From NCBI GenBank assembly GCA_977020255.1, contig CDROCS010004111.1, positions 186,001-244,175 of the forward strand: a DNA stretch of 58,175 bases. The letters are read 5' to 3'. The notes beneath the pieces were generated by a model that searched no databases, was not told where the DNA came from, and saw only the letters and a list, made by a program, of their open reading frames with translations. Positions 7,218-58,175 of the stretch are shown here, one piece after another (position 1 is the first letter of the stretch; every line of letters starts with the position of its first letter). The DNA is from Obrimoposthia wandeli. Taxonomy: Eukaryota. A program made the translations under genes and the position numbers.

Positions 7218-8011
7218 TATAGACATGAAAGTGAAAGATTTAAATCGACATTTACAAATTTTAAAGGGAAACAATTTAAAAGCGATTTAGCTAAAGTTGG
7301 ATTTTATAAACATGACGATGATTCAACCGATAAAGTACAATGTATAAACTGTCAAGGTGCATTATTTGATTGGGAATGGTATCTTAAAACAATGAAGCAA
7401 CACATGAAAATGTTTTCTACATGCCCATTACTTTTAAAATTAAATGTTTCAAATGTATCAATTATTGAAACTAGTGATAAGAAAATTGATTTTGATACAT
7501 CACCATTGATCGGAAAAGTATATGTATCATATATTGATGTAAAATTACCTGATATATGTTATTCAAAAAGTTTAGGAAACTATATGATGCTAATGTTATT
7601 GAGAAAATCGAAACAGATTGTATTATCGAATATCCTTTAACTATAGAAAAATTCAATATGTTGATGGAATCAAACCACATCAGATATTTGAAAAGGTTTT
7701 CACAAAAGATATAATAAAATATGTCGTAAAATAAAACTAGTGATAAGAATAAAATAATGCAATATGCAGAATACAAATCACTATTTGAAATGATCTGTTA
7801 TTTATCTTATTTAAAAATAAAACCTGAAAAACAATATATAAATATTCTTTCATACATTTTAAAAGAACTTGAATTTTTAGTGTGTTTAAATAATTATATT
7901 GCTGTAAATACATGTATATTGTGTTCCAGGATATTACATTCATGTCCAGTATGTCGATGTATAATTGAAATGAGAGTAAGAAATGTAAAATTTCATCGTA
8001 TAAACAATTGA
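7218..8011 (+). pseudogene. iap: Inhibitor-of-apoptosis (IAP) gene: BIR - UBA-like - RING, degraded
   Basis: 7218-7433 reads YRHESERF...LAKVGFY...DKVQCINC-x16-H-x6-CPLL, canonical BIR CX2CX16HX6C spacing. KIMQYAEYKSLFEMICYL is UBA-like. The RING remnant ...TCILCSRILHSCPVCRCII has lost its PCGH segment. Confidence 0.85.
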
Positions 8012-8329: not shown

Positions 8330-8900
8330 TGAAGCTGTATATCAGATAGTGGGATCCAGGGTAGTGGAAAAACACATTTTGTAACTAAATTATTACAACA
8401 CAATAAAATGTATAATAATCGATTTAATACGATTTCGTGGCATTATGGTGATGTTTGTGAATCAGGGTTAATGACAAGTGAATTATGTAAAGTTAAATAC
8501 ATAAATGTGATGATATTATAGTAATTAATGTCATATATAAAGAAGCAAAAAGAGAGTCAAACTTTAATAATTTATTCACTAAAATAGCAAGACACAACTG
8601 TGTTACCATAATTTCCATTACTCAAAACCTATTTTATCAAGGCGGTAAACATAGAACACGTAATTTAAACGTACATTAATTGGTTTTGTTTAAGAATCCT
8701 CGTGATCAAACTTTGTTATTGACTATGTTTCACGTCAAGAATTTCCTAATAACAGGCAATATTTGATAAATTTATTTCAAGATGCAACTACAAATCCTCA
8801 TGGTTACTTGTTTCTTGATTTTACCCAATCATGTCCTGATGAATTGAAAATAAGAACCGATATTTTCAACAATTGTATGGTATATAAACAAAAACAAATA
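8330..8900 (+). pseudogene. Polinton A32/FtsK-like DNA packaging ATPase, frameshifted
   Basis: Walker A GIQGSGKT at 8351-8374, then ITQNLFYQGGKHRTRNLN, FKNPRD and DATTNPHGYLFLDFTQSCPDELKIRTDIF, all typical Polinton ATPase motifs. Confidence 0.88.
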
Positions 8901-8939: not shown

Positions 8940-9745
8940 CCTGGTGATGATTTTTAACATGTATTGATGTATTTACTAGATTCATCAGGACATGTTTTTT
9001 TAACGTGTATTGATGTATTTACTAGATTTGGGCGTGCTGAACCCATAAAATCAAAATCCAGTAAAGATATAGATGCTGACATAAAAAATATGATTGATGT
9101 TGTACCCGATAATGTACAAACATATGCTGGAAAAGAGTTTTATAATAAACATGTTAAAGTAACTTTTGATAAATTAGGAGTAAATCACTACTCTGTGTTT
9201 TCACATTTTAAAGTGGCCTTGGTTGAACAATTTAATAGGACATTAAGAGATAAATTAAAGAAACATTTTGTTGTAATTGGATCAAATAAATGGGTAAAGG
9301 TACTACATAAACTGTTAATTTCATATAATCACTCACCACATCGCGGTTTGGGTGGTAAGAAACCTATAGATATTTCATTTGATGATTGGTTTTCTCGTAA
9401 TTAAAAATCAAAAACAAAAAAACCCAAATACAAAGCTGGAGATTTTGTTCGCATATCAAGTCTAAGTACAAAACCTTTTATTAAAAATTTCGATAATAAT
9501 TTGAGTGATGAAGTATTTGAAATATAAAAAATCAATTTACATGTTAACCCCGTAATGTATAATATCATAGATGAGGATAAAAGTACAATAGAGGGGACGT
9601 GTTATGAGCAAGAATTACCAGTTATTGATAAACCAACAGTATAAATATCATTAAATCTAAAGGTCAAAGTAAGAATAAACAATATTACATAAAGTGGAAT
9701 GAATATAAAACATCAACATGGATAAAAGCAAACCAAATACCATCT
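8940..9745 (+). pseudogene. int: Polinton retroviral-like (rve) integrase with C-terminal chromodomain, inactive
   Basis: FLTCIDVFTRF...VQTYAGKEF (catalytic D mutated to Y)...LVEQFNRTL...YNHSPH. Downstream frames give YKAGDFVRIS...IEGTCYEQEL and a chromodomain-like QYYIKWNEYKTSTW. Confidence 0.88.
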
Positions 9746-9789: not shown

Positions 9790-10926
9790 TATTGTTTATT
9801 GGGAAAATCCGATAGAACTTCAAGGTGTAGGGGAAGCTATAAGGATTTGAGTAAAACCGTATAGGGTTTTCTTGTTGAAGTAGATTTACATATTCCGGAT
9901 TGAATACATAATAAAGTTGATGACTTACCTATTGGACCACATAAGTTGTGTCCACCAAACTCAAAAACTCCTAAATTGCATTTAACACATAATGATAATA
10001 AGCATTATGTAATAAATTATTTTTACTCCACTTCTATTTTTTTCTTGGTGCTGAAATCTTAAAAATTCACAGGGCTATTCGATTTAGACAAGCACCCGTT
10101 TAAAAACTATATATTTTTTAAATGAAACAAGCGGGCAACTAGTGTTAATAAGTTTGAATATGAGTTTTACAAAATAAAAAATAATTCCGTTTACGATAAA
10201 ACATTTGAGAATTTTAAGAGGCTGCTTGATATTAGATTATATAATAACGGTAAACGGCTTGAAAAATTAGTTTCGAGTCCTTGGTTTAAACGACATACTC
10301 AAATAAAGGATAATTTAAATTTAGTTTTTATGCAGAAACCGCAAATATGTTTAGATTGGTCTTCCTATATCGGTCAAGCTGTGCTTGATCTATCTAAGTT
10401 ACGAATGTATCAATTACAATATGTTGAGCTTGAACGGTATAGGCAAACTTTTTATTGTAGTATTCGAATTGTAGCTATGGACACAGATTCTTTTTTCCTT
10501 GAGTGTGTGAATATTAATAAGGATAAATTACTTAAAGAAACGATTAAGGATAGGTATTTAGATACGAGTAATTATCCTAAAACACATCCCTTGTATTCAG
10601 AAAACTTTAAAGCTGTAATTAGAAAATTAAAAGATGAAAGTGATGGTACTGATTATAATGAGTAGGTTTTCTTAAAACCAAAATGTTATTAACTTCAAAA
10701 TAAATTAAGGTCCAAGGGTATTTCTTTAAAACAAACTAATTTAAGACACCAAGACTACGCCAATTGTTATGAAAATAAAGAAATTATTAGTGTTAACCAG
10801 TCACGTATAGCATTGGTTCATACAACATTTACCTCTAAAGTTGCTTTAACATGTTTTGATGATAAAAGGAGATGGGTTAGTAAGAATTAAAGCCTAGCTT
10901 ATGGTCATTTTAGTTTAACTGAATAA
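9790..10926 (+). pseudogene. polB: Polinton family-B (protein-primed type) DNA polymerase, C-terminal part only
   Basis: GFLVEVDLHIP, YIGQAVLDLSKLRMY, MDTDSFF (DTDS at 10480-10491), DTSNYPKTHPLYS, KSKG and FDDKR...LAYGHF before TAA at 10924-10926. Several stops and frameshifts. Confidence 0.9.
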
Positions 10927-14000: not shown

Positions 14001-15704
14001 GAGCCATGTGTGCTCATTGGAATATACAGTTTCTTTTATGCAAATAGTTACAGTTACATGGGTAACTATCAGGAATATTAAGACAAAATACTTTTCATAC
14101 AAAAATTATTATTATGACAGACAAAATTTTATTTAAATTATGTTTAGAAATTCTAACTTTTTTTCAAAGTGTTGTTTAGTCAACTTTAATAAAGATTTTA
14201 GCTTACTTCTTTTAGTGTTTAAATACCTAATAATATTTCCACTACTTTATATACTATTTGAACCTTCAATTTTCCCTCCCATTTATTAAATACAAATATT
14301 AATAGTTAAACTTCAATATACTTTCCTATCATTTCGCTGTTTCTTTTATAGCAGTATGGTTCATTAATTGTCAACACGATGAACCCATCAAATAATGTTG
14401 AGTTCCATAACGGTTCTTGCATAGATTTTAAACAATATCAACCTCATTTTTCTTAAATTAGAACCATCAATTTTTGGCTTTACTTCGATTGAAAAATATG
14501 AATAATCAGAAAATACACTTTTAGTACTAAGTATGAAATTAACAAACTTGTCTTTACAAAAATGTCAATTTCCTTACCATTATTAACTAATAAAAATAAA
14601 GATTTTGCGTATATAATATGTTTTTTATGTAAAACAGAGTACCTTATAATTAATTATTGGACTATAGTATAATATTAAATTAAAACCTTTATTTTCACTA
14701 ATAAAAATGCAAGATTTGGGACAAAGTAATAATTTTCTGCCTCAATACAAATACACATTTAAACTTGAGATTAAAAAACATCTAAACACAAAAATAAATG
14801 AAAAAACATTAATATTTGATTACAAAAATCATTGGAAAAATAAGTTTAAGATCCCTTAAATCAAAGAAACTGTCTGCAATCAAATTTGATGCCTCTTGTG
14901 TGGCTGGGTTTGCTGATTAGTTGAGCTAATTCAATAATTGTTCCCTCCATGTTTCCAAAAAGCAGATGTTGATGCAATTGAATAAATAAATACTTGGTTT
15001 AATGATAAACAACGTCGGATAACTTTTAATTATTTACACAGCCTTTCTGATTGTTTATTTATTTAAAATTTATACTGAAAACAACTTTTTAAATAAATTA
15101 TTCTAATCAATTTAACTTCTTTCCAATCAACACAACACACTGTAAACAAAGCGTGAATTTAGCAATATGTTCAACGACTTTGTACATATCATAGCGTTAA
15201 TGACATTAACATTAAATTGTTTCTCTTTGTCACAAAATGCATTGCTTTGCAACTGTATAAATAGTTTGTGGCCGTATTTCTACTCATATACATGTTTCAG
15301 TCTTGTTAGGCCTTATCAGTATGAGATAGGTTTGATAAGCTGAGTCACTTTCCCAGGTCTTTATTGGTTGCTATTTTTAAACCTTTGGCATGATTTTTAA
15401 ACACCTATTGACTCAAATCAATATAAAACTGATGGGAAAAAAAGTCAAAAATAACTATGTATAAAATATTTTAGTACTCATAAATCCAAATCGCATTCGG
15501 GCAGGATGTAGTATCTGAAAGCAGCAGATATATCGAATTTTCTTCGGTGCATCACAACTTAGTGTACTTTCTTTCTATTTTTTCAAACAATGTAACAATT
15601 TCGCTCGTCAATGAATAATTTTTTCTATCACGATTTTTGGCACAGACAGTTAGATTTTATGTACTCGAGTGACAATTTGAGCAAATAGGTGGATACTCAC
15701 GCAC

Positions 15705-15997
15705 ATTGAAGGATGTCTGATAGGGCAGTGTGGATGCCGCACGAAAGTGCTCATTGGCAAGGCCAATGGCAGTCTTGTTGGCGGTTAGGAAGTGGTCGGG
15801 TGAATGAGGCAGCCCCTGCAGTTGCTGCTGCTGTTGGTCGAGACTCATGGTCATGCCATCTCCGAGAGGCAACATCCCGATCGAGGCATGTCTGGTGAGG
15901 GGACTAGGTCGTGCATGAAGATTCATGATGGAGTAGTCGCCCCCACCACCGCCGCTGCCGACCATGCCGTATCCATCCCGTATGGGACTGCAGTTGT
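15705..15997 (-). CDS. Protocadherin-like gene, juxtamembrane cytoplasmic exon
   Basis: Acceptor ...gtaccag| before 15997. The phase-1 join gives DNCSPIRDGYGMVGSGGGGG...QTSFN. Donor gtgcgt (15704) keeps frame with the next exon; an alternative donor gtgagt lies at 15700. Confidence 0.8.
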
Positions 15998-16343
15998 CTG
16001 GTACACAATAACATGATATTACTTGTTACATAATATATAAACAAATTTAAGTTTATTTTAACAAATTACTTGATTAATGAAATTCCAAAAATATAACCAA
16101 ATACTAACATTTAACAAAGCTCATAAATGTTAATAAAATTTACAACAATAAAAATTATGTACGCTACAAAATGCAACTAAAACTACCCAACCCCCATCTC
16201 TTTATCTTTATGATAATTGAGCAGGTCAAGTTAAGAATTAAAATTGTATATATTTCTAATTCTAAATTTAGTTCTTAAATACTGTTTGTTGCTAGAGAAG
16301 ATCTTCGTGTTTCACATGCCAGTCTCTTTGTGTATGATTTGGA

Positions 16344-17260: not shown

Positions 17261-17322
17261 ATTAGGGGTTTAGTTTTATTTATACATGATAGTTTTCTTA
17301 ATAGTACAATATTATTTCTCAC

Positions 17323-17533
17323 CATTTATAGATTTGATTGTGTGATTGACCCCTTGCTGATTGGAGGAGCCACGAGACTTCTGCAGTACAACGCAAATAG
17401 CCACCAGTAGGATCACCGATATGACGAATGAGGCAATGACAATGGCCACTATGATGTAGAGGTTGAGGGCCTCCATGTTGGGTGAGTGGGGATCAAACTG
17501 GTGACCAATCGGGGGCGAGCTGTCGACCTTTAT
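17323..17533 (-). CDS. Protocadherin-like gene, transmembrane exon
   Basis: Acceptor ccag| and donor |gtgaga. 211 nt, phase 0 to 1. Encodes IKVDSSPPIG...LYIIVAIVIASFVISVILLVAICVVLQKSR (TM helix). Confidence 0.88.
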
Positions 17534-18299
17534 CTGGAGTAGATATCAATTGCTCCTCAAATATATATTTACATCATGATAATGAGTGTAATCTGTGATC
17601 CTTTAAACTTTAAATAAACATTATTTACCCTATAAATGTCTAGCTGATATATAATAAATTACAAATAATTAAATAGTTCATATATTTTATGTAAACACGT
17701 GTAGATTAAACTTTAATTGATAATTAGACTGCTTGATGAATGTTAACTTATTTTTTATCTTTAACATAATAGCATATTTCTAGTCTGTGTGCATTATCTC
17801 GTCGGGATTTGACACATCGACAATTTCAGGAAACCCTGTTTATACACATAATAACGATTTGACACGCACTTAAAACAGTATTAATGTTATATAAAAGCAT
17901 AAGGTTTTGCATAACAACCACCCCATATTATTTATGCCTCAGTAACATCATATTTCAACACCTCAGAGTGTTTTTTATTAATTGTCAACATGTTTCATTA
18001 TAAAACTCTTGTATGATAAAGCACTAAATATTTTCACCTTTAAACCGTCTTCTTTTTAGAAGTGGCGTATTTTAGAGGTTCATCATTTATGAATACATCC
18101 GAATTTTTACTGATTTCAAAAACATTATTTCGTTTCGATAAATTCAGTTTTATTTGTTCATTTATAACTTTGTTTTCGATTTCTTGCAATTACAAACCAT
18201 AACTTACCTATTGATCACGATATATGAACTTCAAAATAAAATTTAATTTGTTAGAGAAATATATTATATTAAGGTATAAATAAAACCACATATAGTTTA

Positions 18300-23160: not shown

Positions 23161-23326
23161 TTGGAAAATGTTTAATGCGTTTTGGTTTGATAAATTTTTT
23201 TATTGTAAAAGTCGCTCAAATTTAAAATATATTTAAATATATATGTAGCTAAAATTAACCACTAATTCATCGATGAATGATTAAAATCTACATATATCAA
23301 TTACTTTTAGTCTTATGTAGACTCAC

Positions 23327-23539
23327 ATTTATAGTAACGGAGCTACTGCGGGGAGGGGTACCCATGTCCCGAGCCACCACAACCACATGGTAGATCCGGG
23401 CGTCTGCAGAGCTGAGTTTCTTGGCCAAACGTAATTCTCCCGTTTTTGGGTCCAAGTAAAACTTCATTTCTGGGTCTCCACGATCGATGTTGTACTGCAC
23501 CGTGGCATTGGGTCCTTCGTCGCGATCGTATGCCCCAAT
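23327..23539 (-). CDS. Protocadherin-like gene, last extracellular cadherin repeat exon
   Basis: Acceptor ccggcag| and donor |gtgagt. 213 nt, phase 0-0. IGAYDRDEGPNATVQY...FYLDPKTGEL...VARDMGTPPRSSSVTIN contains the cadherin AxDxDxGxN and AxDxGxP motifs. Confidence 0.95.
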
Positions 23540-24325
23540 CTGCCGGAAAACAAGTAAGGTTAGGTTACCTTCTTCAAAAAATAGACTCAAATTTACTTAT
23601 CAATTTAGGTATCAATTAAAAGGAAAATAAAAAATGCTTTAGAAAAGGTTTAAAGTTATTTTCCACTTAAAATTGATCAGGCAATTTGGTCAAACTTGCA
23701 AGATTTGAGTGATATGATTTCAATGTAAAGTGGAGAGGAATCTGAGACTGTTAGGCAAAATATTTCATAAACGGATTCTGGAAGTCCACTTTTAATTTAT
23801 AATTTCGTTTCGTCTCTTATATGAATGATCGGCCAAAATCTGTAGTTTTTTAACATCAAATGAAGCACGACAAATGAGTACAAAACCTTTTTTTTGTATA
23901 CCTATATAAAATGAACCAATATAATACTTCAACTACTTTCGATAAAGAAATTAATAAAAAATAAAAACATATAGTATAGGCATACAAACTGTATTTCAAG
24001 AAATACTAGGAATTGAAGTTGTAATACATTTTTAATCACGCTACATAGATTATTTTTTGATACTTACGCAAAGTGAAAACCAAATAAAAATTCAAGTATT
24101 TTTGAATAGTCAATAATATGTTAATACAAATTTTCACTAGGTCCATCATGCAATATTCAGGGGTTCGAATATTCTAATAGCCTTTACATCAATTTCCTCT
24201 GTCTATTCTCGTTTTTAATGTAAAATATTTATCAGTTGCACAATATCAAAAATAAGGTTAATTAAATAAATACTTTTATTGATTAAATTTTTCCATATTT
24301 TTTATTTACCTATAGTTGTCGATAA

Positions 24326-42300: not shown

Positions 42301-45136
42301 TTTCAATTTATTTTTCTCAATAATTTGATGATATTTTGATAAACAAGAACTTATTTCGCCTAACTATTGTTTTTTACCACTTCATCCCAATATAACAATT
42401 TATTTCCTAAAAAATTACAGTTGTGTTTTAATAGTTCATACATTTTGTTTCTTTTAACGGCAATTTTATAGGTATGTTTAAAAAAACTTTCTGTTTACCA
42501 TCTTTCAAACCTTGGGAAATTAAGGGTACTATTTAAACGGGCGAAATAGACTCAAACTGACTTACAGTCTTTCAAAGTCCCCTAACGAGACAGAACAAGA
42601 GGTCGAAGCTAGTCTACTAAACGATAACCGTGTTTACCATAATCACCACTGAGTCATCTGAGCGATTCTTGTCTGCAGAGAACACAACGTATTCTGCAAT
42701 TGTTTCCGCTGCCATCTGGGCAAAATCACGGAAAATGGAATCGAGCGCTTCAACCCAGGTGGGAGGAAGTTGGAGGTTTGACGGCAGATTCCTCTCTGGG
42801 ATTTGCACTTTCGGATACGGTCTGTTTACACAGTGGATTATGCACCTTTTAATTGTTGGACTGTCTGCATCGGTCCCTCGTTCGCTAATTAGGATTCGAG
42901 CTGTTTGTCTGATAAGCTTGTTGCGCTTTTCTGTGTGAGTATTTTGTGTTTAATTTTTGACTGAAATTGACCGTTCATTGTTCTTATTCCGATTGAAACT
43001 TCTAAATCTATACCTGCTCATATACTTTTAAGACAAAAATCATTAAATTATATTTCATTTTATCAGGCACAATTTCAATTTATTTTTTCTTAAAATACGC
43101 ACTTCTTTCAATTGATTCAACACTTTAACATTTTTAACAGAAGGCACCTTTTTTCAGCTCTCGCCAACAAAGACTATACTGAGGGGTTGAAGACCCTTAT
43201 CAACGATGACCGTGAAACTGTGCCTTAATATACGAATCTCGTAGAATTGTTGACAGCTTTTAAAATTTACCAAATGGACAATTTTAGAAAACGGCGCAAC
43301 CAATTTTAATGATTGTTTATTTTATAAAAAAATATAAATTAGAACGTATGAGCAAAATCATAATTTATAACAAACATGCTGAATCAAATTAAGTACCTTA
43401 AAATCATTCTGATAAAATGAGCCTTATCTACCGCTAGGCACTATCAATTTTTTTATGTTTATGAAGAAATCTGAATACCCCCTACTTGATGCAACACATA
43501 TCATGACAATAAAATTCAACTATGCGTAACCAGTTGTTGAATTTCTAAAACCAAGTGGGTCTTTACTAACGACTGTACGACTTCGCTCATTTCAAAAATA
43601 ACAGGAATTTCATCCATATTTCCTATTTGTTCTAAATTGATTTATGTTTTCCGATTATTCACTTTTACTTCTCAGTCATCGAGAAGTTTCAATTCAAAGA
43701 TTGTTATTGGGCTACAATTCAGGGATTTTAATCTCAACTTTCGACAATCTCTTCGCTTTCTATTTAATAATTTTATTCAAACTTTGTAATCTCCTTTTTC
43801 TATTCTTAAATATATTTTTTCAATTCTAGTCAAAGCTTATTTCGATATATTCAGGTGCCTCTCTTTGGATTGAATTGTTGAAGAACTAATCTTGTCCTAC
43901 CATTATTTTCTGTTTAAAATATTTTTTATTGAGATTGTGTATGAATTTATGATTTTAATCATTTGAAATTATTTGTTGTTTTAAAATTTGATTTATTACT
44001 AATTATAAAATTTTAAAATGACCAAAAAATAATTATTAGAAATTAATTAGAAATATTGTGACAAGGTGCGCTTTATTTATCAATGAAGTGTTATATGAAT
44101 TAAATGATTTTTAACGGGTACGCGTTATCAATGTGATTTTAGGTTAAAAATGAAAAGTTAATTGAGGCAACTACTAATTTTCTGTGAACAGTTAATGGTA
44201 CATTTCTCATTGGAAAAAGAGAAATCTAAATTCGAAAGGACATTGATATTTTTGTGGACGATGTCAAAGTGTGTTTTCCTTGAGGAAAAGAGGGAAAACG
44301 AAACGGTAATCCAATGTATGTGGTAGGTTCAACTGTGCTAACATATATCTGACCCTTATTTAAAAATGATGACGTTTTTTGAAATTTGTAGTCATTTTAA
44401 ACAAATTAAATATTAGGAAATTTAATAATAAAATTCAATAAATATTGAGTAGTTATCATCGCAATAATATTTTTTCTTGATCATACAGTATAGGAAGTTT
44501 ATATTAAAACTAAAAATTGTCTAACTTCTTCGAACATTCTTATTTTACTGATCCCTGTGTAAAACCACTGTTAAGGTTGAGAATTAAGAAAATTAAATAT
44601 TTTAGTTGATTAAATACTAAAATAAAAATCCTTGAAAGCAAGGTCGAAAATTGAATTAAAATATTAATTTAAGTTTAGAAGTAAAATTAGTGAAATTTAG
44701 GGTAAATTAGGAGGACCACGAAGGTCGTGTATTATGCGAAAATGTATAAAAGTTAAATTAATTAACCCAAAAGGGACAATTTCAAAAACAAAACTAAAAC
44801 TTAATTAGAAGAAAAACGGTTAATTACAACCGTCGCTCAAGGATCCCCAAGGTAAGCACTTTTGCGTGCAGTAACTAAGATTGTTTTACAGCTGTCATTG
44901 ACTGACAGAATCCAGAATCGCTAGAAGAAATCTACCAGGAACCCCAGAACAGCTGTCAGTTGATTGGCAATCAGGTTCCTATTTAAGAAGAGCCAATTCA
45001 GAAGACAATCACAAATACGGAATCGCTCCAGAGTCGACTGGACGACAATATTGACTTCTAGGTAAGGAGTGTAAGAAGAAATAACAAATTTAAATTATTT
45101 AGGAAATCGATTTTGAATATCTGAACCTATAACCAG

Positions 45137-45494
45137 CCAGCGTATCCAAGAGTCAGCGTATCCAAGAGTCAGCGTATCCAAGAGTCAGCGTATTCAAGAG
45201 TCAGCGTATCCAAGAGTCAGCGTATCCAAGAGTCAGCGTATCAAGAGTCAGCGTATCCAGAGTCAGCGTATTCCAAGAGTCAGCGTATTCAAGAGCCAGC
45301 GTATTGAAGAGTCAGAGTAATCAAGAGTCAGCGTATCCAAGAGTCAGCGTATCCAAGAGTCAGCGTATCCAAGAGTCAGCGTATCCAAGAGTCAGCGTAT
45401 CCAAGAGTCAGCGTATCCAAGAGTCAGCGTATCCAAGAGTCAGCGTATTCAAGAGTCAGCGTATTCAAGAGTCAGCGTATTCAAGAGTCAGCGT
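45137..45494 (+). repeat. 16-bp tandem array (CCAAGAGTCAGCGTAT), ~22 copies, inside the LTR
   Basis: Directly visible; it generates the spurious repetitive ORF 45304-45582. Confidence 0.95.
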
Positions 45495-45587
45495 TCTTCG
45501 GATTCCGCAAATTACCTACGGATCCACATCGGACATCTCGCCGTACCGGAATCAGCGAGTAACTGGTAAGAACACAGACTAGGTTCA

Positions 45588-46024
45588 TTCATTGCCCCTA
45601 GTAGGCAATTAGGATATATTCATTACCCCTAGTTGGTAATTCTATATTTCCTTAATAATACACAAATTCATTGCCCCTAGCTGGTAATTAGGATCACTGC
45701 CTCTTTACCACAATCATTGCCCCTAGTTGGTAATTAGGATCGGACCTTTATTCATTGTCCCCAGCGACAATTAGGAAACTTACCAGACGTTTTTTCCCGT
45801 AAGATTCATTGTCCCTAGCTGGCAATTAGGTTCCTTCATTGCCCCTAGTTGGTAATTCGGATAAATATTCATTGTCCCTAGTAGAAAATTCGGTAAGACT
45901 CATTGTCCACTAGCTGACAATTCGGTTCGCACATTGTCCGTAGTTGACAATTAGGAGTAAGTTTTATTGTCATCTGGACAATTAGGATTTTAGGAGATCC
46001 CTTGTCTACAGTAGACAATTTGGG
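45588..46024 (+). repeat. ~12 spaced copies of an imperfect palindrome TTCATTGYC-(N7-8)-GRYAATTMGG inside the LTR
   Basis: Examples: ttcattgtccctagctggcaattagg, cattgtccactagctgacaattcgg, cattgtccgtagttgacaattagg. Spacers are of variable length. Confidence 0.85.
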
Positions 46025-46507
46025 TCGAACACACAGAGAGTAAGGAACAAAGAAATATTTGGTTAGAGATAAGAAGTAGGAGCGAAGAAATTTAAGAGAG
46101 TTGCGTTATAGATTAACCAACCTGAGTAAGAAGATTAAACCTAGGAAACTTAATCACCTGAACGTAAAATCGATACGTGGTTCATCCCCACTTCTTGTAG
46201 AGACTCACAGAAGTCCTTTAGGAATTTTATCATACTTTTTAGAAATACGTACATAAACGTATTGTGGTGTTAGTTACGTGAATTTTGAATAAACAATTTC
46301 CTACATTAGAACAAGTTGTTTTTACACCCTTCAGACTAAGAGACATCAAAGCAATACCTTCAGATAGTACAAGAGATTAGGCAACCATAACACTAAGTAG
46401 GCCACGACCAACTTTAAGACCTGCTTCTAATCGAACTCACGTTGGGGCCCTCCGCACACTAAGAGGCTCTATACCAAGTTTCGTATAGAAACCCCAACAT
46501 ATTAAAG

Positions 46508-46552: not shown

Positions 46553-47405
46553 TAGAATAAGTTCAGATAAGTTTTGGAAAATTGAGAATAAGTTCAGGTG
46601 AATAGAATAAGTTCAGATAAGTTGCGGATAATTGAGAATAAGTTTCAGGTAAATAGAATAAGTACAGATATTAAGAATAAGTTTCAGATATTGAGAATAA
46701 GTACAGATATTAAGAATAAGTTTCAGATATTAAGAATAAGTTTCAGATATTAAGAATAAGTTTCAGATATTAAGAATAAGTTCAGATATTAAGAATAAGT
46801 TTCAGATAAATTGAGAATAAGTTTCAGATAAATTGAGAATAAGTTTCAGCAGAAGAATATAGACAATTGAGAATAAGTTTCAGAAGAAGATATAAGTAAA
46901 TTGAGTTAAGAATTTGATAAGTGTTAAGAAATCGGGTAGATTTGTTCCTCGAAGTTAAGAATTTGATAAGTGTTGAGAAATCGGGTAGATTTGTTCCTCG
47001 AAGTTAAGAATTTGATAAGTTTTTGAGAAATCGAGTAGATTTGTTCCTCGAAGTTAAGAATTTGATAAGTGTTAAGAAATCGGGTAGATTTGTTCCTCGA
47101 AGTTAAGAATTTGATAAGTGTTGAGAAATCGGGTAGATTTGTTCCTCGAAGTTAAGAATTCGATAAGTTTTTGAAAAGTCGAGTGGATTTGTTCCTCGAG
47201 TCAGTAAATTTTATAAGTGAGAATCGAGTGGATTGATACTCGAAGTAATTAATTGAATAAGTTAAGTCGGGAGACTCTGTCCTCGAACTAATTAAAAAGA
47301 TAAAATCGTAAGTGAATTTGATAAAGTGAGAATCGAGTGGATTGATACTCGAAGTAATTAATTGAATAGGTTAAGTCGGGAGACTCTGTCCTCGAACTAA
47401 TTAAA
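46553..47405 (+). repeat. 5' leader built of three tandem arrays (~20-bp, 49-bp and ~110-bp period)
   Basis: gaataagtttcagatatt units at 46553-46880; gaagttaagaatttgataagtgttaagaaatcgggtagatttgttcctc x~6 at 46903-47198; two copies of gtgagaatcgagtgg...cctcgaactaattaaa at 47217-47405. Confidence 0.9.
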
Positions 47406-47693
47406 GAGATAAAAAGTCGTAAAATAAGAATTGTGAAATAAGCTAAAAATAATAAGTGAATTGATATCGTAAACGAATACATAATTGATAAGACAACGGA
47501 TAATAGAAAAGGACCCGCGTATAATACTAGAAGACAAAGTCAGATCCCCAAGGAAGAGATAAATAATAATAAAGTTAACCGAATTGAACAGGTTCCCCAA
47601 ACAGATAACAAAGTAACAGAAAAGACTAGAGTCGAAGAAAACGTATCAGAAAGAGACGTTGATCAATCAGATGTTTCAACCGGCAGTTTTAAT

Positions 47694-49833
47694 TTGACTG
47701 AATTATTTGGTGACATAGACCAAGAAGAATTTGAAATTGCCAATCCAGTAGTGATTGAGGAAGTTCCATTGAATAATATTGCAGAAATAGTTGAAGACGA
47801 TATAGTTGCAGATATGGCTCAACCAGGAGCTCAAGCAGATATTAATGCAGGAAATAATGTAGGTGACATGAATGCCGAGCAGTTGGCACAAGCTTTAAAT
47901 GCGACGTTGAGACCCAATTTTTCAGGATCATTGCAGATTACAAAGTTTAAAGGAGATGAGGAAAGTATTTGTGACTTCCTCGCAGAATATTCGAGTTGTG
48001 CAGATGTTCAAGGATGGAACGATAAAGAAAAAATGTATCAGAGTACAGGCACATTTAACCGAATTAACACTTGAAGAGTGTAAAGATTTGACAGAAGCAG
48101 AACGTTTGGACTGGCGAGCGTTAGGTACTGCTTTTATTGGAAAATTGGTATTAGGAGATTTAGCCAAAGTAAAATAAGCGACTCATGAGAGAACGGAAAC
48201 AGAAACATGATGAAGGCGTGAATGAATACGCGTATGTTTTGAGAACCTTGGCCGCAAGAGCGTACCCAAGAAGAATAATGAGAAATCAGGACGGTAATCC
48301 TGTAGCTCCAGAAGCACAAGCAGCGGAAAATGACCGGAACCAAAATGAAATGGCAGAGGTCTTGTTAGATATATTTAGAGGAGGATTGAAAAAAGGATAT
48401 TAAAGTGTTATTAGCAGTATCGGATACAAATGATTTTGATAACGCCGTGCGAAAGGCGAGAGAAATTGAGAAAAATATAAAGAATAATGCAGCATTGGCA
48501 ATCTACGCAATGACTGCAGGTGACGACGATAAGACAAAGGTCTTCGTGAATAAAACAGAACCGAGTAATTTTCAGAATCGAAATTATGGACAAAATAAGT
48601 TTGAAAAAGTAGATGAATCCAGTAACGGAAACAGAGATAATTTCCGAAGTAGGAATCGAGATGATTCGAGAGGTAGAAATAATAGTGAGTCTTGGAACAG
48701 GAATCGAGATGATTCAAGAGGTAGAAATAATAATGATTCGTGGAATAGAAATAGAGATGATTCCAGGAATAGATTTAATAGAATAATTCAGGAAATCGCC
48801 AACCTTGGAGAGGAGACGATAGGAATTATAACGCAAACAGAGGAGAACAAGTGACTCTCGATTTGGAAATAATGCAGGAAATAGTGACGGAAGATTCAAT
48901 AATCGAGGAAGCGGTTTTGAATCGAATTTCCGAAGAAATGATTTTAGAGGACGCTATGATAATAGACAGAATAGTCGTCGAGTACAGTTCGAAGATGAAC
49001 AAAATAAAATAGATATTCGAGGGAGAATAATGTGTTACACATGTAAACAAATGGGTCACTATTCGAGAGATTGTACGAGAAGTAAAGAGTTCGGAGCTAA
49101 CAGATTTGGAAATAATTATAGAGGATATAATTCACCTCCGCCATGGAATAGAGGTGGTGGATATACTCCACAGCCATGGAGACTGAATAATCAGTATGCA
49201 GATAGACAGCAAGGAGCTGAGAGATACAATAATTACGTAGGACAGCAAGGAGCTGAGAGATATAATAATTCTGGTAGATATAATAATAATAATGTCGACA
49301 AGACAAATAGTCGAGAGAGTTCGCCGAAACCGAAAGGAAATTTTAGTTATGTAAGCGATGACAGTGATAGGAATCGCGAGACCGAGCTTCGACGCGAAAT
49401 AGATTTTGAAGATAGTGATAGTAAATTTGAACGAATGTTGGGAATAATTAAAGATTCACCACATACAAAGATGGCGAATTCATCTACGTTGTCGAAACAA
49501 GAGAGAAGTCTACATTCGAGAGGAGAGATGAATGATTTAATGAATAGAATATTAGAAGCGTATGAGACACCAATAGAGAAAACGTGTAACGCACAACCTA
49601 TGACTGATCATGTAGAAGCAGCAAGAAATGCTACGAGTATGGAAAATGTAAAAAAGATAATTAGTGAAGCTAAGGAAACGCTGAATCAACCGTTAGATGA
49701 AACAGTGAAGCTCCAGAAGTTTTGGCCAAATTGCAAACAATTAAAGTGCACCGATTGGAAGAAGTACGTGCAGAATTGGTTAAACATAGTCATGATAACT
49801 TGGGTTACAAAGAAGTACCCCGAGGACTACTGA
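47694..49833 (+). pseudogene. gag: gag (capsid, low-complexity R/N/D linker, CCHC zinc knuckle), frameshifted
   Basis: ITKFKGDEESICDFLAEY...GWNDKEK and RKQKHDEGVNEYAYVLRTLAARAY are Gypsy gag-like. Zinc knuckle CYTCKQMGHYSRDC at 49033-49074. About 6 frame disruptions. Confidence 0.85.
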
Positions 49834-49877: not shown

Positions 49878-50108
49878 ATGAAAATTTCACTTCGATTAAT
49901 TTCCGGACAGATAATACATGAAAAACTTAACGTGTATCAAACAATGAAAACGATTCGGAAAAAGTTAGCCGAGAAACTTGAAATTGATGGAATGAATATG
50001 TTGTTCCATTATAAAGGCAGATCACTAGATGATGAGGACGTACCAGTCGAGTTTGGATATCCGATAGGAAATGAATTAGAGGAAAAAATTGATGTCATCA
50101 CTGTAGGA
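49878..50108 (+). other. Ubiquitin/SUMO-like domain
   Basis: MKISLRLISGQIIHEKLNVYQTMKTIRKKLAEKLEIDGMNMLFHYKGRSLDDEDVPVEFGY aligns without gaps to ubiquitin [61 protein letters not shown]. Confidence 0.7.
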
Positions 50109-52841
50109 CGTCAAGAGTTAGTAGATAATGAAGGATTAACCGAGATATTGAATTCTGCGTTAGAAATGATAAAAACGCCTATAGAAATTTTAGACAGTTC
50201 AAGCGAAAGCGGAGATAATGATGTAGCTGAAGTTTGGAACAAGACATCCACACCAGAACCGTACGTAGCTGAATTACAAGACATGAATTTAGAAAATGAG
50301 TTGACAACTCCAGTGGTTGAGGTGCCACCAGAACCAGATATAATTCCAATCAGACAAGATGAAGTCACGGATACAGCCAACCAAGTGAGACAAAACGAAA
50401 CCGTAACACAACTAGTAGGAGAAGACGAAGTCTCCGAGATTGTAGATTTGGATTCACCAATTTGGCATGCCGCATACAAAGATAGACAAGCAGAGCAAAT
50501 GATGCGACAAAATGAAGAGATTGGCCATGAAGAAGGACCAAGTCAAGAGATACAGTATAATGGTGAAACGTATGATCCAGGAGAGAATCAAACTGAGTAT
50601 CAGTATTTTCGAAGAGGGCCTGGAAGACCTAGAAAAGGTGAAAGTATATTACGAAATGTTCTAACTGCACCACAAACTGATGAAGAAAGACATCTAAGTA
50701 TTGGACAGTTAGCGGCGTCATTAGAGCAGTATAGTGCAGAGAGGAATGAAGATATCAGAGGTGATATGAATTCGGAAACTCCAAGTAGTAAAGATATACT
50801 TACGGGAATTCTCAGGCAAGTGAAGCCGAAGTTGTTCAAAATGTACAGAACGGGAATTCTCAGGCAAGTGAAGCCGAAGTTGTTCAAAATGTACAGAGAT
50901 GAAACAACCGATATAACAGACAATTTGACTAAAGCAGTCAGATCACAGATGTCTGCAGTAAAGAGAATGACCGCGAATCATGTATACCATGCATCGATAG
51001 ATAGATTTTATGACGGTGAAGTTTTAGCGAGATTATGTGGAAACCAGACTACAAATAAAAAGTTAATTACAGCGATCACATATCTATGTTTCCAATTGAC
51101 GGAACGAACGAGCCAACCTCACGAAGTCAAACAAGGAATAAATGAAGCGATGTATTTGATCGAGAATGTATTACAGAGACGAATTGACGAAAATGGAGGT
51201 TGGGCAAAATTAAGTGACTACGCTAAAACCATTGTGGAAATTAATGAAGACGATGACGAACAATGTCATGAGAATCGTCAAAAGGAAAATAAACAATACC
51301 GTCCGAAAGAGAGAAACAATCAACCAAATATGTCCACAACAATGATGATGATGATGTTAGTAATGTTTATGGGAATGCAACAGGCATCAGGATTGATAGC
51401 ATATGACTGTAGCATACCAAAGATGGGACAAAAGTATTCACTGCTTGACAGCGAAGACTGTCCAGAATCACAACCGTCAAAACTAGAAGTTCAAGGTGTT
51501 GAAAACTACTTTGTGTATCAGGATGTTGATAAAGTACAAGTAGAAGTGAAAGAATGTTCAATCCATTCAAGTTATCACGAATTCTATTGTGGTCATAGAA
51601 GTTTTATGTCAGAAATCACACCTACCACACCGTACAAGGCACATAAGGTTTTGCCGAGAGATTGCGAAGATGCATTTCGAACGGGAACGATAGGAGGTAG
51701 ACAAAATTACAAACCTGAAGTACAAATTGGAGTGAGACGATACGAAACAGTCACGAGAGTCGGACAGCGATGGGCTGATGGATCTTGTGACGGAGAAACA
51801 AAAAACGTGCGTGGAACCAAAGTATCTGAGTTAGTAATGGATGTAACTTACAAAATCGAATTAAAAACATGGACCGCCAATTTTGATAAAAAGACACAAC
51901 TAATGATGAAGTATCCAGAATGTAAAATGACAGATGCATCTTGTTTTACAGGTGAATCCACAATTGTGTACAACATAAATCCGAAGCAATGCTCTTTAGT
52001 ATTTTTGAAAGAGATTAGCTTTAATAAAATAAAAGGATTCCTGTATAATAAAGATGGAGAGGGGTTCCTGTATAATAAAGCAGGAAAAGGATTGTTAAAT
52101 GAAACAAGACCAATCCCAATGACAAAAACACCTACACTGTTAATGGCAACATCAATAGAAGAAGGATTGATATTTATTAAAAAGAGAAACAAAGCGCGAT
52201 GCGGAATGACTGTTAGTACCACAAACTATCCAGGAATAGTTTTGTCCAAAACAATAGCATTGGCAGAAACCAAGCTAAAACCAAAAGATATGCAGCTACA
52301 CACGTATTTTAATAATAAAATTGATTTCTATTATCATAAAGGATTGATGCAAATGGAACAGTTATATCGGATGATGATTGAAAGAGATTGCCAGTTAAAC
52401 AAAGAGATCGTGAGAACAAAGTTAGCATTAGCTATTACGAATCCAGACATGGTAGCACCATTATTACCCTTGGATGAAGGAGTATTTGCTAAAACCATGG
52501 GAGAAGTATTGTATACTTACAAGTGTAATAAAGTAGAGGTACAGTTGAGAAAAACAAATCGATGTACGAGTGAATTGGCAGTAACGTATAATTTACAAGA
52601 ACTTTTTGTTGAACCAATCACGAGAATGTTACTTCCAAAAGACACCCCAACTAAAGAAATCAGCTGCTCTAATATAATGGCACCTGAATATCAAATGACG
52701 AATAATCTATGGATAACGTTACCTGATCGAAAGCCAACGAAAACCCCAGCGATGATAAGAATGACGAATCTTAAAGGTAAAATGAAATTCCAAGCGGTGG
52801 AAAATATGGAGAACGCAGGATTGTACAATGAAAAGATTTAA
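49878..52841 (+). CDS. Intact 987-aa ORF: ubiquitin-like domain - AT-hook - Bcl-2-like domain - signal peptide - chuvirus-type glycoprotein ectodomain
   Basis: The first in-frame ATG is at 49878 (the frame is open from 49722). No stop until 52839-52841. Confidence 0.85.
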   Translation: MKISLRLISGQIIHEKLNVYQTMKTIRKKLAEKLEIDGMNMLFHYKGRSLDDEDVPVEFGYPIGNELEEKIDVITVGRQELVDNEGLTEILNSALEMIKTPIEILDSSSESGDNDVAEVWNKTSTPEPYVAELQDMNLENELTTPVVEVPPEPDIIPIRQDEVTDTANQVRQNETVTQLVGEDEVSEIVDLDSPIWHAAYKDRQAEQMMRQNEEIGHEEGPSQEIQYNGETYDPGENQTEYQYFRRGPGRPRKGESILRNVLTAPQTDEERHLSIGQLAASLEQYSAERNEDIRGDMNSETPSSKDILTGILRQVKPKLFKMYRTGILRQVKPKLFKMYRDETTDITDNLTKAVRSQMSAVKRMTANHVYHASIDRFYDGEVLARLCGNQTTNKKLITAITYLCFQLTERTSQPHEVKQGINEAMYLIENVLQRRIDENGGWAKLSDYAKTIVEINEDDDEQCHENRQKENKQYRPKERNNQPNMSTTMMMMMLVMFMGMQQASGLIAYDCSIPKMGQKYSLLDSEDCPESQPSKLEVQGVENYFVYQDVDKVQVEVKECSIHSSYHEFYCGHRSFMSEITPTTPYKAHKVLPRDCEDAFRTGTIGGRQNYKPEVQIGVRRYETVTRVGQRWADGSCDGETKNVRGTKVSELVMDVTYKIELKTWTANFDKKTQLMMKYPECKMTDASCFTGESTIVYNINPKQCSLVFLKEISFNKIKGFLYNKDGEGFLYNKAGKGLLNETRPIPMTKTPTLLMATSIEEGLIFIKKRNKARCGMTVSTTNYPGIVLSKTIALAETKLKPKDMQLHTYFNNKIDFYYHKGLMQMEQLYRMMIERDCQLNKEIVRTKLALAITNPDMVAPLLPLDEGVFAKTMGEVLYTYKCNKVEVQLRKTNRCTSELAVTYNLQELFVEPITRMLLPKDTPTKEISCSNIMAPEYQMTNNLWITLPDRKPTKTPAMIRMTNLKGKMKFQAVENMENAGLYNEKI
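50610..50639 (+). other. AT-hook motif
   Basis: RRGPGRPRKG (GRP core flanked by basic residues). Confidence 0.7.
50790..51230 (+). other. Bcl-2-like helical domain
   Basis: BH2-like LQRRIDENGGWAKLSDY (NGGW at 51192-51203; cf. Bcl-xL WIQENGGWDTFVELY, Bax WIQDQGGWDGLLSYF). BH1-position helix NKKLITAITYLCFQL at ~51054-51098. Confidence 0.6.
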
Positions 52842-53238
52842 AGCGGCGTGGAACGAAATAATGTTTCCAGTAAGAAGAGCCAGAGTACTTACGGAGATGG
52901 TACATCGAGCATTACCGCCAGGAGCGAGATATGCAATTTCGATATGTTATTATCGCCAAGTCATTTCAAGGAAGCAGCATCAGACACTTAGAAAGATGTG
53001 GAAATTCCTTGTCTTAGGACAACTATTTTCGGGTATCATAGGTATTTATGTTATAATTAAATTTGTGCAGGTAATTATAGCCCAGGTGTTGTCTACGTAT
53101 AGTTTATACAGGATAACCGGAATCACCTGGCAACTTATAATTGGATGTTTTCCATTTTTAGCAAAATATCTAATGCACCATCATCACGAGAACGAGTTGC
53201 GAGCCCTCAAGAAGAACAACACCAAACGAGAACCATGA
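51330..53238 (+). other. env: Chuvirus-type envelope glycoprotein; TM tail frameshifted after ~52835
   Basis: Signal peptide MSTTMMMMMLVMFMGMQQASG, then LIAYDC...SLLDSEDC, YCGHRS, LHTYFNNK, QLY...DC.L, NPD, GEVLYTYKC..V.V..R.T..C..EL.V and F.EP.TR. The hydrophobic WKFLVLGQLFSGIIGIYVIIKF segment is in the 52828-53238 frame. Confidence 0.8.
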
Positions 53239-53537: not shown

Positions 53538-53822
53538 CCACAAGTAGCAGTAACATTGAACGGAAGAGAATATCTTGCCGAAGTTGATACCGGATCTGCA
53601 GTATCAGTACTGAGTAAAGAAATCTTGTCATCAAAGAATTAAGAGAAGTATGTCCTAGAAAACAGACATTTGTTAACGTGAATGGTACAGATGTAGTGTC
53701 GGAAGGAACACTGAAATGTTCATTGAATATCGATGGAAGAGTATTACAGTTAAATGCTAGAATATTCACAGATTGCGGTAGTCCAGTCATGATTGGGATG
53801 GACGTAATACAGTGTTTGAAGG
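53538..53822 (+). pseudogene. pro: Retroviral-type aspartic protease, copy 1 (frameshift ~53640)
   Basis: VTLNGREYLAEVDTGSAVSVL (DTG at 53586-53594); after the shift ...VNVNGTDVVSEG...SPVMIGMDVI. Confidence 0.85.
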
Positions 53823-54066
53823 AATAATTATACTACCAAACAACAAGAGTTATAAGAATGATAGTTCAGTGAGAGAGATAAAAATGTTGAGAGGACCTAT
53901 AGTCGAAAAGGAAAAAGGCACTACGTTCCGTATGGGAAGTTCGTACCCAGACAGAAAACAGGAAGCGCTAGCAAAGTCGATACTTCACTACAAAAATGTA
54001 AATTTCGGACCACAAGATACGACGAGGAGAAAAATAACATATGTAAATCTGTCAGAAAGGGATCCC

Positions 54067-55099
54067 ATGAGATTCGAGAGAAAGAGGCGAAATATATTAG
54101 AACAGTACTATTCAAAAGGAATGGCACGTAAAATGGCAAGATCAGGTTTAGAAATGCTAAACGCGACAAAGTAGTTATGGTCAGGAGATAGTAGTACGAT
54201 GCGTATGTGGTGTAGAGTAAAGTTTAGAGAATGGGAACAGAATGAAAACCCAATGAGACGTCATAAAAGAGATGCACCAAATTGTCCATTTCTTTTGAAA
54301 CTGAAAAACGTCAAACGTACCAGAAGTCAAACAGGAAAAGCACCCGATTTCGATTACAGTGACGGGGGTAATTCCGAAAGGAGAATCAGCTCTAATAACA
54401 GGTAGAGTAATAACGAATAGTCAGAATTGAAGATATATTCGAAGTTATGCGAAGTGAAACGAATGTGACGAACAGTATCGAGAAGTAACTTTCGAAGATC
54501 CAAGACTTAAAAAATTGGCAAAAAGGGACTTTTGCTATAAAAAGGATGGTAAAGACGTAATTAAATGCCACAAGTGTAAAAAAGAACGAATTATCGACAG
54601 ATATACTCTTGAGCTACCTAAGAAAATTTTACATCATGAATTTTGCGAATTTTGTACTTGTAAAAACAAAATAAAGCAAAAAAGAACAGAAAACCGAATG
54701 TATAATCGAATACCAAATCACACGGAAAGAGATTTTGGCTCAACAAGACACACCGGTAGTGTCATTCGTGAAAGGTTATATCCAAAAGAAGCAGAAAGAA
54801 TCAGAGAATTGGTAGAATTAAAAATAAAAACTACGCGAAACGGATACGGATCGATTTTGAATTACTGCGAGATAAAGATGACAGTACAATTGAAACAAAA
54901 GAAAAGTACATAAATGAACTAGAATACGTACTAGAAGATCCGGAATGCGCAGTTTGCATGGTTAACAAAATAGAAGTTGCCTTTCTACCATGCGGACATG
55001 TAAGAACATGTCGGAGATGTGCGAATGAAATGGTATCATGTCCGATTTGTCGAAAGAATAATAGATCGACAAGTGAGAAACATTAGATTTCACTATCCA
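54067..55099 (+). pseudogene. iap: IAP module BIR1 - BIR2(degenerate) - UBA-like - RING embedded in the pol polyprotein
   Basis: BIR1 (54067-54294) gives C-V-W-C-x16-H-x6-CPFL after repairing a frameshift at ~54205. BIR2-like LAKRDFCY...DVIKCHKC at ~54515-54650. UBA-like LVELKIKTTRNGYGSI. Complete IAP-type RING CAVCMVNKIEVAFLPCGHVRTCRRCANEMVSCPICR (54946-55053), missed by the ORF track. Confidence 0.92.
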
Positions 55100-55180
55100 A
55101 ACACAGGAAGTGGACTGACAGAGTGTAATAATTCGATAAATACAATATACCATATGGGAAACATAAATGGAGCACAGCGA

Positions 55181-55473
55181 CCAGCAGCTATCATTAGAGT
55201 AAATAATTTAAGAGTAAAAAAGCCTTAATTGATACAGGTGCTGTAGCTTCGATAGTAAGTGAAGACTGTTTGACAGAGGAACAGAAACGAACAATGGCAG
55301 AACCAGATGAATTCTTGGTATCGGTCAATGGAGACCCTGTAAAAGTGACAGGAATATTACCATGTACATTTATAATTGGACGTAATACGATCACTATACC
55401 AGTTAGAATCATGAAAGAATGTCCTGAACCTACAATTTTAGGAATGGATGTATTATCACAACTCAAGGGATAA
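55181..55473 (+). pseudogene. pro: Retroviral-type aspartic protease, copy 2 (frameshift ~55220)
   Basis: PAAIIRVNNLRV.ALIDTGAVASIV (DTG at 55231-55239)...VSVNGDPVKVTG...PTILGMDVL. Confidence 0.9.
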
Positions 55474-55959: not shown

Positions 55960-56830
55960 ACAGAAGACAAAGTAGTCAGAAGAAGACCATATCAGTACCA
56001 TTACAATTACAAGATGAAGTAAAAAGTCAGATAGAAGATATGTCTAAAACAGGAGTAATTAGACCGAGTTTTCGCCATTTTCAGCACCTGTGGTGTTGGT
56101 AAAAAAGAAGGATGGGAAAATGAGATTCTGTATAGATTTCCAGAGAACTAGACAGATCACAAGAAAAGATGTGTATCCATTACCTAGAATCGAAGAGATG
56201 CTCGATAAATTGGGTAATTCAGATTATTTACAACATTAGATTTGCAGAGTGGATACTGGCAAATCGAGATAGAAGGAAGAGGATAAACACAAGACAGCCT
56301 TTTCCTTCGGAGATGGATTATACGACTGCGAAAAGATGCCATTCGGACTGACAGGAGCTCCAGCAACATTTCAGCGTTGCATGAATTTTGTACTCGCATC
56401 GTGTGCAAACACGATGGTTTATATCGATGACATAATAATATTTTCGAAAACGTTCGAAGAACATTTAAAAATCTCGAAGTTGTATTTAAAAAGGCTGGAA
56501 AAACGCTAAATTAAAGTTAAACCTACAAAATGCGTATGGGCTAAAGAGCGAGTAACATTTTTAGGACATATAGTATCGAAGAGGCATTCGACCTGATCCA
56601 GCAAAGATCGAAAGTAAAAGCGCATTTAGCACCAAAGACTGTTAAGGAGATACAGAGTTTTTTAGGTCTTGCAGAATTATATAGACGATTTGTTGAACAT
56701 TTTTCAGATATAGCAACACCATTGAGAAAGTTGACGAGAAAAGATGAGAAGTTCATATGGGGAGAAGAAGCCCAACAAGCGTTCGAGCATTTAAAAGAAA
56801 GACTGATAAAAGCACCAATATTGAACCCAG
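55960..56830 (+). pseudogene. pol: Reverse transcriptase, frameshifted
   Basis: SPFSAPVVLVKKKDGKMRFCIDF, YPLPRIEE, LDLQSGYWQI, MPFGLTGAPATFQR, YIDD (56420-56431), FLGHIV, FLGLAELYRRFV. Confidence 0.95.
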
Positions 56831-56844
56831 ATATAAACAACAAT

Positions 56845-57200
56845 TCATACTCATGACAGATGCAAGTAACTATGTGAACAGTATTGGGACAAGAGGATGA
56901 CGAAGAAGAACACATTGCGTATGCGAGTAGAGGATTAAACAGGCCGAAAGAGGATACTCTGTTATCGAAAAGGAATGTCTGGCAAGATGTATTATGTGAA
57001 CAGTACAAACACTATTTGCTAGGACAAAAAGTATTCCTGTATACAGATCACAAACCACTACGAGTTCTTGTATAAACATAGAGATGAGATGAGTAGATTA
57101 AACAGATGGTTTCTAAAATTGGCCGAATTCGATCTAGAAATCCGTTATAGAAGAACCGGAAAGTCGAACGGCAACGCAGATTGTTTATCGAGATTGACAA
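56845..57200 (+). pseudogene. RNase H (Ty3-type), frameshifted
   Basis: MTDAS, IAYASRGL, YLLGQKVFLYTDHKPL, RW...LAEFD..I.Y...GKSNGNADCLSR. Confidence 0.92.
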
Positions 57201-57489
57201 ATGTAGACGAGAAAGGAAACATAATTCCAGAAGAAGATGAAACCAATGACCAAAAAAGGAGAAGCAAATCTACTGACGATTTTGTTAAAGACGGGTAAAA
57301 TAGACAAAGAGATCATCAAAGAACAGAAGAAGATGAAGAACTGAGTCTAATCAAAAAATTGTTGGTGAAAAGGAGATCTAAACGATGAAATGACGAAGAA
57401 ATCTCGATAAAAGAGGCATCTGTATATTGTCAATAATGTCGAGAAGATAGTAGTAGTAATTCCAGTCATTGAAAACAGCAGTGATGATC

Positions 57490-58175
57490 CAGTATCACGA
57501 CGGAACACTAGGAGGACATCGTCAGGGCGAAAGACAATAGCCAGAATCAAAGAGAAGTACCGTGGGATGGTATGGAAGACGACATAAAACAATGGTGTAA
57601 ACAATGTAAAGTATGTTTAACCAGAAAAGACACCGGAACTCGTACTAAAGTTCCGTTGAAACCAATACCAGTTCCTTTGGCACCAATGGAATTCACAGCG
57701 ATGGATATATTGGGACCATTAGAGAATCAAGTAAAGAGCAAGTATGTCGCGTAGTATTTACGGATTACATGACGAGATGGGTAGAAGCATATCCCATGCA
57801 GAACCAAGCTGAAACAATAGCGCAAATCTTAGTGGAAGATAATATTTCGATGCAGGTGCCTAGAAAATTGTTAACGGATCAAGGTAAGAACTTCACTGGA
57901 GAAGTCATAAAAGCAGTATCGAAGATATTCGGAATCATGAAGTTACAAACTTCACCATATCACCCACAGACAGATGGTCTGGTGGAAAGGTTTAATAAAA
58001 CTTTATGTATGATGGTACAATCCTATTGCTCATACAAGCAAGAGGATTGGGATAAATGACCTTCATGTTTATATGCTTACAGGAATTCAGTTCGAGAGGC
58101 GACAGGTCACACACCATTCTATCTGATGTATCTCGGGCAGAACAATATGCCGATGGACAGCAATGCCGTGGCTTA
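57490..58175 (+). pseudogene. int: Integrase (HHCC + rve core), truncated by the window end
   Basis: HDGTLGGH...CKQC; MDILGPL; DYMTRWVEAYP; LTDQGKNF; SPYHPQTDGLVERFNKTL. Confidence 0.95.

Follow-up and report, generated by a model that had tools for sequence, protein, structure and literature searches.

A 58,175-nt stretch of the Obrimoposthia wandeli genome (assembly GCA_977020255.1, contig CDROCS010004111.1, positions 186,001–244,175, forward strand; hereafter the window) contains a Burro-like retroelement and the remnant of a Polinton, both of which carry an IAP gene. The question raised by this locus is whether the two genes belong to a single mobile IAP lineage and, if so, whether that lineage was exchanged between a retroelement and a DNA-virus-like element, as a sequence-only reading of the window had proposed from the segments flanking the two RING domains. 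The common lineage is borne out by full-length homology, common flanks and a well-supported clade, while the exchange is the most likely reading (with a probability of about 0.5) rather than a demonstrated event.

For the retroelement, the following features were identified in the window:

44569–46506 (approximate), + strand: 5′ LTR of the Burro-like element (76–82 % match to the 2.1-kb LTR pair of another copy)
47460–49833, + strand: gag region with a CCHC knuckle, in several broken frames (frames, Pfam)
49878–50060, + strand: ubiquitin-like domain, Ubl (phmmer against ISG15/ubiquitin/SUMO, best E 0.003)
51340–53238 (start approximate), + strand: Mononegavirus-type (Monjiviricetes) fusion glycoprotein in the gag–pol interval (PF24664, E 1.6e-64 and 7e-17)
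53544–53830, + strand: aspartic protease 1, 5′ of the IAP (weak Pfam match here, clear in other copies)
53962–55099, + strand: frame-broken IAP cassette with N-terminal extension, BIR, degenerate second Zn-like motif, UBA-like helices and RING (Pfam BIR and zf-C3HC4_3, tblastn mapping)
54904–55099, + strand: pre-RING flank of the sequence-only reading, RING and C-terminal tail (frames, Pfam)
55207–55473, + strand: aspartic protease 2, 3′ of the IAP (Pfam; 30 % identity to protease 1)
56273–58059, + strand: RT, RNase H and integrase pieces (contig end at 58175)

The polyprotein of the Burro-like element is ordered gag, Ubl, glycoprotein, protease, BIR–UBA-like–RING IAP, second protease, RT, RH, IN and DSP, although the Ubl call is weak (E 0.003 against ISG15, with many further ubiquitin/SUMO matches). 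In another copy, one natural frame of at least 2883 aa encompasses CCHC, PF24664, protease, BIR, RING, protease and RT; a second copy adds RH, integrase and the DSP phosphatase and is flanked by 2.1-kb LTRs whose arms are 96 % identical. The outer LTR ends lie ~23.5 kb apart in the one Burro-like copy measured, and the RING region has at least 151 matches in the 1.35-Gb genome. The assignment of the element to Burro/GYPSM1 is by architecture, and its IAP is already known in kind through the published Burro/GYPSM1.

Several further observations concern the retroelement and its surroundings. A helical region at 50835–51296 of the window occupies the position where Burro elements are said to hold a BCL2-like domain; searches of Pfam, PDB and Atlas gave no support for such a domain, and the region contains what we take, by eye, to be a BH2-like motif. 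In one related locus (L053:340-3252, minus strand), a 971-aa frame without a Pfam match follows the Burro-like DSP domain. Tandem repeat arrays (16-nt units, as well as 20- and 49-nt units) are found at 3591–3718, 45087–45545 and 46553–47414, the two later ones lying inside and after the retroelement 5′ LTR. Between the two elements, exons resembling, by eye, a host cadherin-type gene are located at 23297–23596 (minus strand), 15657–16025 and 17312–17545 (minus strand). A programmed frameshift within the retroelement IAP was also considered, since the frame changed at 30 of 30 loci, but the query itself had selected for this change; with a RING-only query, UBA and RING were read in a single frame at 25 of 30 loci, and the frameshift was ruled out.

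The window Polinton (5.9–10.9 kb) is a deleted remnant of family A, in which the capsid and protease genes have been lost between integrase and PolB. Its remaining features are:

6798–7058, + strand: TBP-like gene (52 % to a copy with PF00352 at E 3e-13)
7116–8011, + strand: family A IAP with BIR, linker, UBA-like stretch and decayed RING, a broken copy (frames, Pfam BIR, mapping)
8351–8897, + strand: A32-like packaging ATPase (mapping to an annotated copy)
8958–9745, + strand: integrase with chromodomain (Pfam and mapping)
9832–10917, + strand: C-terminal part of a protein-primed PolB (comparison with a fuller copy)

Two Polinton families of this genome, A and B, carry the IAP as a standalone gene. 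The window Polinton IAP matched at least 40 places, 39 of which are other copies at 80–88 %, and the IAP has an ATPase or integrase gene no more than 1.5 kb away at 17 of 19 further Polinton loci. Young family A elements contain a 301-aa IAP frame with the TBP-like gene on one side and the ATPase on the other, the order continuing with integrase–chromodomain, capsid-like, adenain-like and PolB genes. PolB (PF03175) and integrase (PF00665) were detected in one family A copy, in which the ATPase (PF04665) scored above the Pfam cut-off and PF21738 and PF00770 (jelly-roll capsid and adenain protease) below it. A presumed third IAP family proved to be the young Polinton A family. Family B encodes a 341-aa IAP frame in which, as in Burro, a degenerate second Zn-like motif is retained, and carries TBP-like and DSP genes as well. 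Terminal inverted repeats were looked for, and the inverted matches of 72–89 % that flank one Polinton copy include PolB sequence.

The TBP-like gene (PF00352, E ~1e-13) adjoins the IAP in both Polinton families (window 6798–7058; L094:4332-4664; L165:4140-4535). IAPs of family B are frequently arranged in inverted pairs ~10.5 kb apart (C4062, C6785, C2408, C5564, C988, C41; L162–L165), and the DSP gene is also doubled in both copies examined that contain such pairs; this arrangement is a rearranged, partly palindromic Polinton form. The DSP phosphatase domains of Polinton family B and the Burro-like element are 30 % identical in a comparison that included no outgroups (L093:2289-3086, L165:3028-3762, L053:3204-6998), and the catalytic motif of the Polinton DSP is degenerate. 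DSP is possibly a second cargo common to Burro and Polinton B.

The window contains all four flank segments quoted in the sequence-only reading. In the retroelement, the pre-RING segment begins at 54904 (frame 54772–55086); the reading frame of this copy is broken directly downstream of CPICR, so that the post-RING tail falls in a different frame (55004–55228). The Polinton segments begin at ~7832 in frame 7730–8011. The BIR (PF00653) scores above the cut-off in both window elements, and the C3HC4 RING (PF13920) was detected in the window retroelement and in another Polinton copy. The RING of the window Polinton is decayed and yielded no Pfam RING match, a full RING being encoded by copies elsewhere. 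The UBA-like stretch gave a weak 11-bit profile match to cIAP1 (3T6P) and no Pfam UBA match, and the AlphaFold model (pLDDT 39) was unusable. From their family, these proteins are predicted to combine BIR binding with RING E3 activity and to delay apoptosis.

The likeness of the two IAPs is beyond chance, the two regions of the window already matching by tblastx (E 5.6e-12). As the frames of both window copies are disrupted, the comparison was extended to natural unbroken frames of copies elsewhere in the genome, which matched at E 1e-44 and 2e-42. The Burro IAP is 33 % identical to that of family B over 308 columns and 32 % identical to that of family A, with likeness covering the N-terminal extension, the post-BIR and pre-UBA segments and the tail, which in both kinds of element is longer than that of cellular IAPs. 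Among the proteins compared, the eight best non-self BLAST matches of the Burro IAP are five Polinton IAPs, P0014, P0071 and P0163 (114–151 bits, the next match reaching 95.5). The RING flanks, which had been described as idiosyncratic, were traced among 279 BIR–RING proteins: seven of these contain the pre-RING motif and nine the post-RING motif, and every one of them belongs to the mobile-element clade. The motifs were derived from mobile sequences, and the informative part is therefore their absence from the other 270 proteins. The two kinds of IAP also differ: Polinton BIRs have Leu at the first Asp of the cIAP1 SGDDPW motif, an acidic position with a role in IBM binding, whereas Burro keeps Glu there. 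Because Polinton BIRs lack the acid kept by Burro and cIAP1, the two proteins may bind different partners.

Phylogenetic analysis places these genes together, in line with the expectation of the sequence-only reading that they should cluster. In tree 1, a quick mixture tree of 71 rows picked from ~280 proteins (two of the 73 selected had no parsable RING), Burro, Polinton, P0014 and P0071 form a clade with SH-aLRT 100. The same clade was recovered at 100/99, the bootstrap not having settled, in tree 2 (49 rows, LG+G4), which includes 17 viral rows kept after thinning of 36 viral BIR–RING frames from 49 loci; there it lies outside the large viral group and is separate from the cellular and viral IAPs sampled. 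Free-living flatworm cellular IAPs and known Polinton IAPs of other hosts are absent from both trees. In both, the Polinton IAPs form their own subclade, within which Burro is not nested, and the Burro IAP pairs with P0071 (support 91 in tree 1, 97/77 in tree 2), while P0014 is unstable, being basal in tree 1 and sister to the Polintons in tree 2. In a profile search of 1.84 billion representatives, P0014 (UPI000602CAF0) and P0071, both without name or genomic context, were the only proteins among the best 150 to match as one full-length stretch. P0071 is a standalone 403-aa protein on metagenome contigs of 15,990 and 6,828 bp. No relatives were found in phages, viral contigs or JGI metagenomes.

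The divergence between the Burro and Polinton IAPs is deep. Their dS of 1.3–1.9 is saturated, and no DNA-level match between them is significant (best E 0.011). No recent transfer event is visible, given the identity of 32–33 %, these dS values and the lack of a significant DNA match, and the split is old. Within families, seven pairs gave a dN/dS of 0.22–0.44 and one short RING pair gave 0.09; every pair was chosen from unbroken frames. In both elements, therefore, the IAP gene is of long standing and has been kept under purifying selection.

The common origin could also be explained if a divergent RING-IAP of the flatworm host, already equipped with the flanks, was captured twice independently, the host gene being either still present but undetected or since lost; we consider this possible if rather unlikely. 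Such captures would fit the deep divergence described above and the partial presence of the pre-UBA motif in the unrelated IAP P0155, as well as P0014, which besides its basal position in tree 1 has retained BIR and UBA features of a more canonical kind, bears ~100 extra N-terminal residues and could be a flatworm host gene. The genome searches argue otherwise. All 175 IAP-like loci among the matches listed are mobile (84 Polinton A, 62 Burro and 29 Polinton B), and cellular IAP queries likewise returned mobile copies alone among the matches listed. The best genome matches of the N-terminal part of P0014 are 50–56 % identical, all 30 examined being mobile copies, and its extra ~100 residues have no match in the genome. 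The canonical cIAP RING pattern matched five times, in mobile copies only; a host IAP pattern search of the genome gave no match, and a second one gave two, a BRUCE-like exon and a site without recognisable BIR context. The only host BIR exon found (L171, C6834:49226) presumably resembles BRUCE/BIRC6. A search with PF21290 for a host IAP gave no match, but it lacked a working positive control and hence carries no weight as evidence. The sequence-only reading had named a host IAP with the same flanks as the sign of independent captures; none was found, yet the search is incomplete, and because repeats fill the matches listed, a divergent, intron-split host IAP could hide behind the mobile copies. 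Loss of RING-IAPs has been reported in flatworms (PMC13159474); in the available part of that source the supplement rows are parasitic flatworms, with no matches for Schmidtea, Dugesia or Macrostomum. More doubtful is the proposal that this animal has no RING-IAP of its own and that the lineage survives solely in mobile elements, having passed from Polintons into the Burro polyprotein, where a duplicated protease would release it. If true, hundreds of transposon copies would provide an apoptosis regulator class lost by the host.

The remaining alternatives fit the observations less well. Both elements may have received the IAP from a third carrier, for instance an unsampled virus, without ever exchanging it directly; the standalone P0071 on metagenome contigs, which groups with the Burro IAP, and the RNA-virus-type glycoprotein also borne by Burro are compatible with this scenario, but viral contigs and JGI metagenomes contained no relative and the mobile clade does not fall within the large viral clade of tree 2, making such a carrier improbable. 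The grouping might in turn be an artefact of long-branch attraction or of convergence under AT bias, as the clade stem is long (1.4–2.0 changes per column) and GC3 is low (0.16–0.28) in all mobile IAP copies. This explanation is largely refuted, since other long rows, viral ones included, stay out of the clade in tree 2 and the similarity extends to linker regions beyond the conserved domains. Finally, the presence of both elements in one window, and of Burro pieces near Polinton copies elsewhere, could suggest that a Burro element inserted into one Polinton copy and left the Polinton IAP behind as debris. That idea is refuted by the fixed place of the gene in two families, its unbroken state in many copies, its purifying selection and its lack of protease flanks.

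An ancient exchange of the IAP between the Burro and Polinton lineages thus remains the favoured reading, weakened by the ~33 % identity, the saturated dS and the position of P0014 and P0071 inside the clade. According to it, two kinds of mobile element would carry one old, fast-evolving IAP lineage, in Polintons as a standalone intronless gene next to the TBP-like gene and in Burro as a whole gene in frame between two aspartic proteases, and the gene would have moved once between the element lineages, long ago. The host is probably a planarian, judging from the Burro architecture and the AT content. Transfer from Polinton to Burro appears more plausible, even though the Burro IAP does not branch within those of the Polintons: wherever the ends of other members are visible, the gene stands alone, whereas Burro has the make-up of a mosaic assembled from captured domains, with the whole IAP lying between two proteases. 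Template switching onto a co-packaged transcript is the putative route. The protein probably acts like a viral-type IAP and, judging from its family, would delay the death of element-expressing cells through binding by its BIR and the E3 activity of its RING. In Burro, it would be released from the polyprotein by the proteases on either side. The RING tail is followed by H-Y-P in 58 of 60 Burro copies, and this conserved Tyr-Pro, in keeping with the preference of such proteases, is a candidate cleavage site at which the RING C-terminus would be set free.

These observations provide a concrete case of cargo common to a retroelement and a DNA-virus-like element. The anti-apoptotic cargo of Burro has been noted since 2007, with no source given in the available text of PMC6431247, and the Polinton sister gene is a candidate for that source. 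If planarians lack cellular RING-IAPs, as the accessible portion of PMC13159474 reports for parasitic flatworms, the system would offer a direct, RNAi-testable link between transposons and cell death in a regenerating animal. No literature linking Burro and Polinton IAPs was found by title and start of abstract, subscription journals and Repbase lying outside this search.

Burro/GYPSM1 are planarian giant Gypsy-like elements with env between gag and pol and a BIR in the polyprotein, according to the part of PMC6431247 consulted. The element described here resembles them in its single polyprotein with Gag-CCHC, Ubi/SUMO-like, BIR and PR–RT–RH–IN domains, in the in-frame gag–pol position of an env that matches mononegavirus glycoproteins, and in its long LTRs and many copies. 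It differs in having one CCHC knuckle and no MATH or ankyrin match, and the Burro account, within the same part, makes no mention of an IAP placed between two proteases, of the DSP or of a Polinton link. As regards the glycoprotein, the consulted part of PMC10084718 reports that in arthropods no chuvirus glycoprotein was found to be clearly captured by a Gypsy element. The mobile IAPs share a BIR and a C-terminal C3HC4 RING with cIAP/DIAP2-type and baculovirus-type IAPs, and putatively, by the weak profile match, UBA-like helices with cIAP1. Unlike cellular and baculovirus IAPs, however, they have a single clear BIR, accompanied by a degenerate Zn-like motif, and an extended tail, and form a separate clade. 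Polintons and adintoviruses with accessory IAP cargo have been published (PMC8502044, seen in part) and, like the elements studied here, they encode PolB, integrase, A32 ATPase, jelly-roll capsid and adenain protease. In contrast to the elements covered by that portion of the source, the IAP described here belongs to a BIR–UBA-like–RING lineage shared with a retroelement and is located beside a TBP-like gene. IAP cargo was already known in each kind of element, and no account of a common origin of the Burro and Polinton IAPs was found in the literature searched; the two form a specific and real lineage common to two known kinds of IAP-bearing element.
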